Assembly (NCBI GenBank): GCA_008080745.1
Contig: SHMX01000001.1
Coordinates: 60,001-92,000, forward strand
From: Candidatus Thorarchaeota archaeon
Lineage (GTDB): Archaea; Asgardarchaeota; Thorarchaeia; Thorarchaeales; Thorarchaeaceae
DNA length: 32,000 nt
Direction of reading: 5' to 3'
Under the pieces are notes generated by a model. It saw only the letters and a program-made list of their open reading frames with translations, was not told where the DNA came from and ran no database searches. The translations under genes were made by a program, and so were the position numbers. This document shows, in pieces, positions 17,971-18,768 of the stretch. Within the stretch, counting starts at the first letter, position 1. Every line of letters starts with the position of its first letter.

Positions 17971-18035
17971 TGTATCACAGTTTGTGTTAAGGGAGAAACA
18001 TATCTAAGAACATTCCCCTAAGTATTTGTAGAAGA

Positions 18036-18052
18036 ATGAGTATGATACTCAT
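18036..18052. promoter_or_regulatory. Perfect 17-bp palindrome, candidate transcription-factor operator
   Basis: ATGAGTAT-G-ATACTCAT directly abuts the 5' stem of the C/D sRNA and lies 66-82 nt upstream of the divergent M20 gene. Confidence 0.55.
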
Positions 18053-18124
18053 GCAGGCCAATGATGTTATTACCCCTGTCTGACCTGAAATGGAATGATT
18101 ACTCAAGAGCAGACTGAGGCCTGC
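18053..18124 (+). ncRNA. Box C/D methylation-guide sRNA
   Basis: Terminal stem GCAGGCC (18053-59)/GGCCTGC (18118-24); C box ATGATGT (18061-67); 12-nt guide TATTACCCCTGT; D' box CTGA (18080-83); C' box ATGATTA (18095-101); 12-nt guide CTCAAGAGCAGA; D box CTGA (18114-17). Order and spacing are canonical for archaeal C/D sRNAs. Confidence 0.85.
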
Positions 18125-18561
18125 TCTTTTCAATAAGGTGGCTGGGTCCATAGGTCCCAAAAGCACAGTATTTTGTCCTTGATATCATCCATTCTAAGAG
18201 TTTGTGTTTCAATCCGGGCATTGTTATTAAGAAATAAATAGTGTCGGATAGATATCGAGACCCCGCCTCTGTGCTGAATAAAACATTCTCTCAGTTTTAG
18301 AGGTATGGCGTTTATGATTTGATTATGGACCGCAGCCAATTGTTTATTCTCCAATTTGTGGTAGTGGCACGAACTGAGAGATCGCGTTATAACAGATTAG
18401 ACAGGTTCCAGTTATATGCTAACGGATTATCTTGTTCTGCTCTAAAAGCGGTTATAATGTGATGAAAGTATGGTTAGAAAGGGTCTCAATTTTTTTGATT
18501 TGGTTATTTGAAAAGCATAAGATAGTAAGGTCTCTTTAATATACTCACACTAAACAATTGG

Positions 18562-18768
18562 TCATTCCTTAGGTAACCGGTATTGAAAGCCTCTATCAGA
18601 AGCAGATAACGCTCTAGCAGAGATTATTTCTTCACGTCTACTAAGTACAATCGACTCAGAATCTATCTCGAGAACTATTTCTTCGCCTTCTCGAACAAAG
18701 TTCTTGATTTCCTCCCGGGTCATACTACTAAGAATAGATTTAATTTGGTCCGCATATTTTCTTGACAT
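18562..18768 (-). CDS. Small hypothetical protein (68 aa)
   Basis: ATG start, helix-then-strands composition (MTREEIKNFV..EEIVLEIDSESIVL), no competing ORF on either strand, and an AT-rich box about 20-30 nt upstream. Confidence 0.6.
   Translation of the reverse strand: MSRKYADQIKSILSSMTREEIKNFVREGEEIVLEIDSESIVLSRREEIISARALSASDRGFQYRLPKE

Follow-up and report, generated by a model that had tools for sequence, protein, structure and literature searches.

A dual-guide box C/D sRNA of a Thorarchaeota genome with two predicted targets in the large-subunit rRNA

The 72-nt RNA encoded at positions 18053-18124 (+) of the window, that is, of the whole 32,000-nt stretch of DNA analysed here (contig C1:60001-92000 of genome G000), is a genuine but unremarkable box C/D guide of the archaeal kind. 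We estimate a probability of about 90% that it is a genuine dual-guide archaeal sRNA of this class, with its own promoter and two targets in the large-subunit (LSU) rRNA, and it probably represents, in Thorarchaeota, an old archaeal guide directed at the peptidyl-transferase region. The RNA adds a well-supported and hitherto unannotated guide to an Asgard genome of the Thorarchaeota type and is worth annotating; no catalogue of Asgard C/D sRNAs was found in the literature searched.

Results and discussion

Host genome and architecture of the sRNA

The window belongs to an archaeal genome of 3.16 Mb (19 contigs, 98% complete). Its Asgard origin, which the initial annotation had considered probable, was supported by the relatives of the adjoining M20 peptidase gene, which come from organisms named Candidatus Thorarchaeota or Promethearchaeota archaeon. 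The same genome encodes fibrillarin (303 bits) and Nop5 (Nop, 219 bits) side by side at C2:517955-519420, together with two L7Ae-family genes (99 and 71 bits). Examination of the locus recovered every element that had been read from the sequence at the outset, namely a 7-bp terminal stem, C, D', C' and D boxes, two 12-nt guides and a loop closed by CC/GG. The features are as follows:

18020..18030 (+): TATA-like element AAGUAUUUGUA, about 25-30 nt upstream of the 5' end of the RNA; putative promoter
18053..18059 (+): 5' strand of the terminal stem, GCAGGCC; 7 perfect pairs with 18118-18124
18060 (+): spacer A between stem and C box
18061..18067 (+): C box AUGAUGU; differs from the RUGAUGA consensus at the last base only
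18068..18079 (+): D' guide UAUUACCCCUGU, 12 nt; pairs with own LSU 2567-2578
18080..18083 (+): D' box CUGA, read from the sequence
18084..18094 (+): D'-C' loop CCUGAAAUGGA, 11 nt; closed by CC/GG (18084-85 with 18092-93)
18095..18101 (+): C' box AUGAUUA, read from the sequence
18102..18113 (+): D guide CUCAAGAGCAGA, 12 nt; pairs with own LSU 2661-2672
18114..18117 (+): D box CUGA, read from the sequence
18118..18124 (+): 3' strand of the terminal stem, GGCCUGC; partner of 18053-18059
18125..18131 (+): U-rich tract UCUUUUC; possibly a weak archaeal termination signal

Archaeal C/D sRNAs are 50-70 nt in size with spacers of about 12 nt (PMC7994747). The RNA described here spans 57 nt across its boxes and 72 nt once the stem is counted, and both of its spacers (C to D' and C' to D) are exactly 12 nt long, in agreement with the archaeal spacing. 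At the C/D motif, the UGA and GA that provide the tandem sheared G.A pairs of a k-turn are present, as is the G6-C1 pair, and the seventh base alone deviates. The C' box AUGAUUA carries a U where the G partner of C1 of the D' box is expected; both the C and the C' box are off-consensus. The canonical boxes, the two 12-nt spacers and the 7-bp stem together make up the architecture of a guide RNA bound by L7Ae, Nop5 and fibrillarin, as the initial annotation had recognised.

That annotation had also placed the RNA in the only large non-coding gap. The sRNA does lie there unannotated, but the gap is not wholly non-coding, as it contains a conserved 68-aa open reading frame (ORF) at 18562-18768 (-). 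This ORF showed 81% identity to its counterpart in the congener G001 and about 28-32% in other Thorarchaeota genera, where its homologs are usually found near the sRNA; it gave no Pfam match even at an E-value of 5. Two other ORFs were set aside. The 74-aa ORF at 18130-18354 (-) had no relative in G001 or in other loci and was treated as spurious, and the 59-aa ORF at 17987-18166 (-) appeared conserved only where it overlaps the RNA: it had no Pfam match, and its tblastn matches cover the RNA alone.

Motif rarity, Rfam searches and folding

A search for a strict composite motif with a stem of 5 bp or longer gave 3 matches on both strands of the 3.16-Mb genome and none in the reversed genome, so that a chance arrangement is unlikely. 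When the pattern was relaxed, 13 matches were obtained against 3 in the control with a stem of at least 6 bp, and 73 against 26 with a stem of at least 4 bp. These relaxed counts point to a few tens of C/D-like loci in the genome, and the scan is too noisy to serve as a catalogue.

Searching the whole window against Rfam at gathering thresholds returned no match. With E-value reporting, about 17 C/D snoRNA families aligned end to end at 18050-18130 (+), all of them below the gathering score, the best being SCARNA18 (31.8 bits, E 4e-5), snoR38 (29.7 bits, E 0.017) and SNORD72 (26.5 bits). Many weak C/D matches of this kind are the pattern expected of a generic C/D RNA whose guides are foreign to the individual families. 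An Rfam sR9 alignment at 18032-18085, which takes an upstream AAUGAG as the C box, was discarded: the upstream sequence is not kept even in the congener G001. A tRNA search of the window with ARAGORN was negative. The fold energy of the RNA was unremarkable (z = -1.9), as expected for an RNA that is held together by proteins.

Conservation and covariation

BLAST searches in 40 relatives, followed by reading by eye, located homologs of the sRNA in several genera. In these BLAST-anchored homologs the boxes and both guide cores are kept, while the stems and the D'-C' loop vary. A first strict regular expression had recovered no homolog in the relatives, because most genera have UGAGG or UGAAG C boxes. 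One BLAST match (G018:C205, L008) covers only the loop and the C' part and was not counted as a homolog. A covariance model, R1, was then built from seven homologs. Of the 86 genomes in the family, 71 gave an R1 match at E<=0.01, and in 68 the score was at least 47 bits; the matches spanned 15 of 16 genera, and no R1 copy was found in the 7 genomes of genus g4. A match of 61 bits was obtained in a sister family (G025).

The reading in the initial annotation had been made to depend on conservation of the boxes in relatives, and on this point it withstood the comparison. Across 34 aligned orthologs the UGA core of the C box is invariant, with UGAGG or UGAAG variants in most other genera, and so is the AUGA core of the C' box, which reads AUGACGA or AUGAAGA in relatives. 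The D box is CUGA or CCGA in every ortholog. The D' box is degenerate in some relatives (UUGA in G001, AUGA in G012 and AGGA in G025), which is usual for this box.

Compensatory changes were seen in 8 of the 10 modelled pairs across the 34 orthologs, with 92.6% of the cells paired; for the terminal stem the values were 6 of 7 modelled pairs and 96.6% of cells. None of 500 shuffled controls reached the observed covariation, and sliding the partners against each other lowered pairing from 92.6% to 25-47%. The pairs that close the D'-C' loop covary, being CC/GG in the genus of the host and GC/GC elsewhere; pair 38-48 is GC in 28 sequences and CG in 3, and pair 39-47 is invariant. Additional internal pairs proposed by RNAalifold (columns 17-66, 18-65, 33-55 and others) cut through the boxes and guides and were omitted from the model. 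Ortholog lengths range from 67 to 76 nt, in steps that are not multiples of three.

Comparison of G000 with its congener G001 identified the RNA block as the best-conserved intergenic part, with 80% identity across 165 nt and about 93% within the RNA. About 45 nt just 3' of the sRNA (window 18132-18165 (+), AAGGUGGCUGGGUCCAUAGGUCCCA...) are kept in G001 and not in other genera, and a second block conserved between the two genomes lies at 18323-18391. The neighbourhood is also retained: the sRNA lies upstream of the M20 gene and on the opposite strand in 10 of the 15 Thorarchaeota loci fetched via M20, and it lies no more than about 100-200 nt from the M20 gene in 9 of these 10 divergent loci; in the window the M20 start is 82 nt away.

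The upstream regions of 28 distinct orthologs are 79-93% A/T at positions -30 to -25, and the A/T block of the window (AAGUAUUUGUA) is kept between G000 and G001. Its position fits an archaeal TATA box and, as far as can be judged from sequence, supports the independent transcription that had been suggested for the RNA. A run of at least four T residues occurs within 25 nt downstream in 12 of the 28 distinct orthologs.

Variants of the RNA were observed in some lineages. In genera g6 and g8 a tandem paralog lies about 55-60 nt downstream of the ortholog (L120, G006:C45:21830-22126; L121, G047:C6:59275-59567). Its D' guide is of the same type, identical in G047 and truncated in G006, and its D guide differs from that of the ortholog, reading ACCGGUGAGCAG or CACGGUGAGCAG. 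Family f5 (L102-L105, L108 and L117) possesses a C/D RNA in which the D' guide, GGUUACCCCUGU-CUGA, is the same and the second guide is different; its C box, AUGAUU, is unusual, and its stem has 8 bp (GUUGAGAA/UUCUCAAC). Here one guide has been kept and its partner swapped.

Predicted rRNA targets

The two guides were scored by Watson-Crick pairs at guide positions 2-11; the scan covered rRNA. Each guide had a single best site with 9 of 10 Watson-Crick pairs, both of them in the LSU rRNA only (gene at C9:71161-74266) and 94 nt apart. Specifically, the D' guide pairs with own LSU 2567-2578, CCAGGGGUAACA, through 9 contiguous Watson-Crick pairs at guide positions 2-10. An A x C opposition stands at position 11 of this duplex, where most other genera have a G and 10 bp. 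The D guide pairs with own LSU 2661-2672, UCGGCUCUUGAU, through guide positions 1-2 and 4-11. At position 3 an A faces G2508; this A x G mismatch is found in the whole family, lies two bases from the predicted methylated C and leaves an 8-bp core. A 9/10 match of a single guide is not rare, as shuffled guides reached it in 22% and 11% of trials; shuffled guide pairs with both members at 9/10 within 150 nt arose in 0.17% of trials.

Stronger evidence for the targets than these match scores is the covariation of guides and rRNA seen in the aligned sequences. For the D guide, the genus of the host combines LSU UUGA (...CUCUUGAU) with guide UCAAGAGC, the other genera of the family combine UUGG (...CUCUUGGU) with CCAAGAGC, and the sister family f2 combines UUCC (...CUCUUCCU, rRNA read) with GAAGAGC. 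The D guide of family f22 is GAAGAGCCG; the locus fetched for f22 did not yield the LSU D site, and this guide would pair perfectly at positions 2-10 with UCGGCUCUUCC of other non-Thor Asgard families. For the D' guide, LSU CAGGGGUAA occurs with guide UUACCCCUG in families f1, f2 and f5, and LSU CGGGGAUAA with guide UUAUCCCCG in f3 and f22, so that two positions are compensated. The D' core UUACCCCUG is kept in most of the 34 aligned sequences, and a few show one substitution. Covariation across Asgard families offers a route to assigning methylation targets in uncultured archaea from sequence only.

In C/D guides, methylation falls on the nucleotide that faces the fifth base of the guide, counted upstream from D' or D (PMC7994747). 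By this rule the predicted target of the D' guide is own LSU G2571 (C9:73731), corresponding to E. coli G2446 and yeast G2815, and that of the D guide is own LSU C2665 (C9:73825), corresponding to E. coli C2510. The predicted methylation at C2510 is the less secure of the two, because the A x G mismatch at guide position 3 leaves an 8-bp core. Both sites are located in LSU domain V, beside the peptidyl-transferase centre. The E. coli numbering follows our mapping through the E. coli row of the alignment of Dennis et al. (PMC4644070) together with the known A2451 and U2449.

The rRNA genes of this group showed several insertions. Insertions of about 145-790 nt, presumed to be rRNA introns, are found in the D' target of L051 (G001), L052 (G008), L033 (G002), L032 (G011) and L031 (G012), where they sit right after GGGGUA or GGGGUAA (E. 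coli 2450/2451). In G001 and G012 the rRNA is also interrupted just before CCCAGGGGUA, which would leave a micro-exon of about 10 nt equal to the guide target. The D' target of the host genome itself contains no intron. From the position of the insertions, full guide pairing in the intron-bearing relatives would be possible only with spliced rRNA. Conceivably, though we think it unlikely, the guide recognises the spliced junction in these genomes, which would link splicing to modification. In the LSU rRNA of the host, an insertion of about 30 nt that is absent in G001 sits at the tip of helix 89, between the sites to which the two guides point (about 2602-2631; L001:4102-4131); it folds as an 11-bp hairpin and could be a micro expansion segment or a mini-intron. 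The 16S rRNA gene of the host (L002, G000:C2:589938-592348) spans 2411 nt for a 1478-position model, which indicates an insertion of about 0.9 kb (intron or expansion), and this gene on C2 is unlinked from the 23S gene on C9.

Comparison with known guide RNAs

The closest parallel in design was found in Methanopyrus kandleri, a hyperthermophilic methanogen of another phylum, whose sR7 (MKAsR7) has the same two predicted targets in the same order (PMC4644070, Additional file 1). When its guides are parsed against the 23S row of this species, G2446 is assigned to the D' guide GGUAAUCCCCGG and C2510 to the D guide CGGAGAGCCGG; both sites are marked K7 in the 23S alignment block (PMC4644070). The two RNAs share a similar size, a short D'-C' loop and a terminal stem. 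MKAsR7 differs in its boxes (AUGACGA, CCGA/CGGA) and in a D guide that pairs without the position-3 mismatch found in Thorarchaeota. Outside the boxes and guides no similarity between the two can be demonstrated, and either descent or convergence could account for the likeness. Nanoarchaeum equitans sR03, from another phylum again, has a D' guide AAUUAUCCCCGC followed by CCGA that pairs with CGGGGAUAA and places G2446 at position 5, and differs in its second guide, UUCUCAAACCGG (PMC4644070, Additional file 1). Among Asgard archaea, the family f22 sequences have both guides co-varied relative to the Thorarchaeota RNA. The guides of T. tenax sR140, N. equitans sR04, S. acidocaldarius sR7 and M. 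kandleri sR45 only look similar (PMC4644070 supplement) and were rejected as equivalents, as they mismatch the local rRNA or point one base off (G2509).

Among eukaryotic RNAs, snoR38 (RF00213) has a guide upstream of D' that pairs with the rRNA stretch of the Thorarchaeota D' guide in an identical register, with the same G at position 5; the Rfam alignment places ..UAUCCCUGU-CUGA of snoR38 over UACCCCUGU-CUGA of the Thorarchaeota RNA. At 29.7 bits against a gathering score of 45, the latter falls outside the family as Rfam defines it. Eukaryotic snoR38 RNAs are longer (91-position model), and the model consensus contains no counterpart of the C2510 guide, unlike the symmetric 12-nt double-guide design of the Thorarchaeota RNA. 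The G2446 site is methylated in yeast 25S rRNA (Gm2815, snR38), human 28S rRNA (Gm4362, snR38A/B/C), Arabidopsis (Gm2805, snoR38Y) and Dictyostelium (Gm3148, CD6) (PMC8817022, PMC5199042). Dictyostelium Cm3212 (CD38) appears to map to C2510, since it follows Gm3148 by 64 nt, as C2510 follows G2446, with a Dictyostelium-yeast offset of 333 on both sides (PMC8817022). The sites predicted for the Thorarchaeota RNA lie in the catalytic core of the ribosome, one at a methylation conserved in yeast, human, plant and Dictyostelium and the other at what seems to be a Dictyostelium site.

The RNA had been put forward as relevant to the origin of eukaryotic snoRNAs. That relevance is modest at most, given the guide pair of Methanopyrus and the D' guide of Nanoarchaeum. 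As the same guide pair is present in M. kandleri, the RNA is to be read as archaeal heritage and not as an Asgard-specific link. It is conceivable, though we think it unlikely, that the guide lineage was inherited vertically from an archaeal ancestor through Asgard archaea to eukaryotes, and that the double guide for G2446 and C2510 was split into single-guide snoRNAs. The products of such a split may be snR38/CD6 for Gm2815/Gm3148 and Dictyostelium CD38 for Cm3212. If this were true, the RNA would be among the very few snoRNAs traceable by descent across the transition from archaeon to eukaryote. The picture of snoRNA origins is otherwise unchanged, no new mechanism is involved, and the RNA is of moderate interest for the evolution of rRNA modification.

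Proposed mode of action and alternative explanations

We infer that the sRNA is transcribed, assembled into an RNP and used for methylation. As we propose, L7Ae would bind both a k-turn made by the C/D boxes and a k-loop made by the C'/D' boxes, and Nop5 and fibrillarin would assemble on the L7Ae-bound RNA. The two 12-nt guides would then pair with nascent LSU rRNA, each presenting to fibrillarin for 2'-O-methylation the rRNA nucleotide that faces its fifth base, counted upstream from the D' or D box. Bound to sites 94 nt apart in domain V, the sRNA may also help this region to fold.

This last role could be taken further, with the C/D RNP acting mainly as an rRNA folding chaperone that tethers two strands of domain V during assembly and causes little or no methylation at one of the sites (likeliest that of the D guide) or at both. 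Such a function would suit two targets that lie 94 nt apart in one rRNA domain and a D guide whose A x G mismatch at position 3 persists throughout the family; moreover, archaeal double guides to nearby sites are common in the rRNA block, where K7, K16, T17, T50 and I414 are each listed twice (PMC4644070). The 12-nt spacing and the register nevertheless put a conserved nucleotide at position 5 in every lineage, as methylation requires, and eukaryotes methylate G2446 by an equivalent guide. Chaperoning and methylation are in any case compatible, and we consider a predominantly chaperoning RNP improbable. Alternatively, a real C/D sRNA might direct one or both guides to another RNA (a tRNA, an mRNA or another sRNA), an idea that draws on the 11-22% of shuffled guides that achieve a single 9/10 rRNA match by chance. 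It is very hard to reconcile with compensatory guide-target changes at three rRNA positions across Asgard families, with the location of both sites in one domain (p ~0.002 in shuffles) and with the same guide pair in M. kandleri sR7, and we give it very little weight.

Finally, the locus might contain no RNA gene, its motifs being due to chance, to a promoter or leader of the divergent M20 gene or to the antisense 59-aa ORF at 17987-18166 (-). The M20 start is 82 nt away in a neighbourhood kept in 10 of 15 loci, and an ORF does overlap the sRNA on the opposite strand. This explanation is largely refuted, and we regard it as scarcely credible: the stem covaries, orthologs of 67-76 nt change length in non-triplet steps, stems and loop vary around conserved boxes and guides, the ORF lacks a Pfam match and has tblastn matches to the RNA itself only, and the strict motif occurs 0 times in the reversed genome.

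In addition to the dual-guide sRNA of the window, other likely C/D sRNAs were noticed in the same genome. The one at G000:C6:71516-71586 (+) combines a 9-bp stem with a variant C box (GUGAGGC) and scores 30 bits against model R1, and two more lie at C1:506430-506485 (-) and C2:500958-501006 (+).
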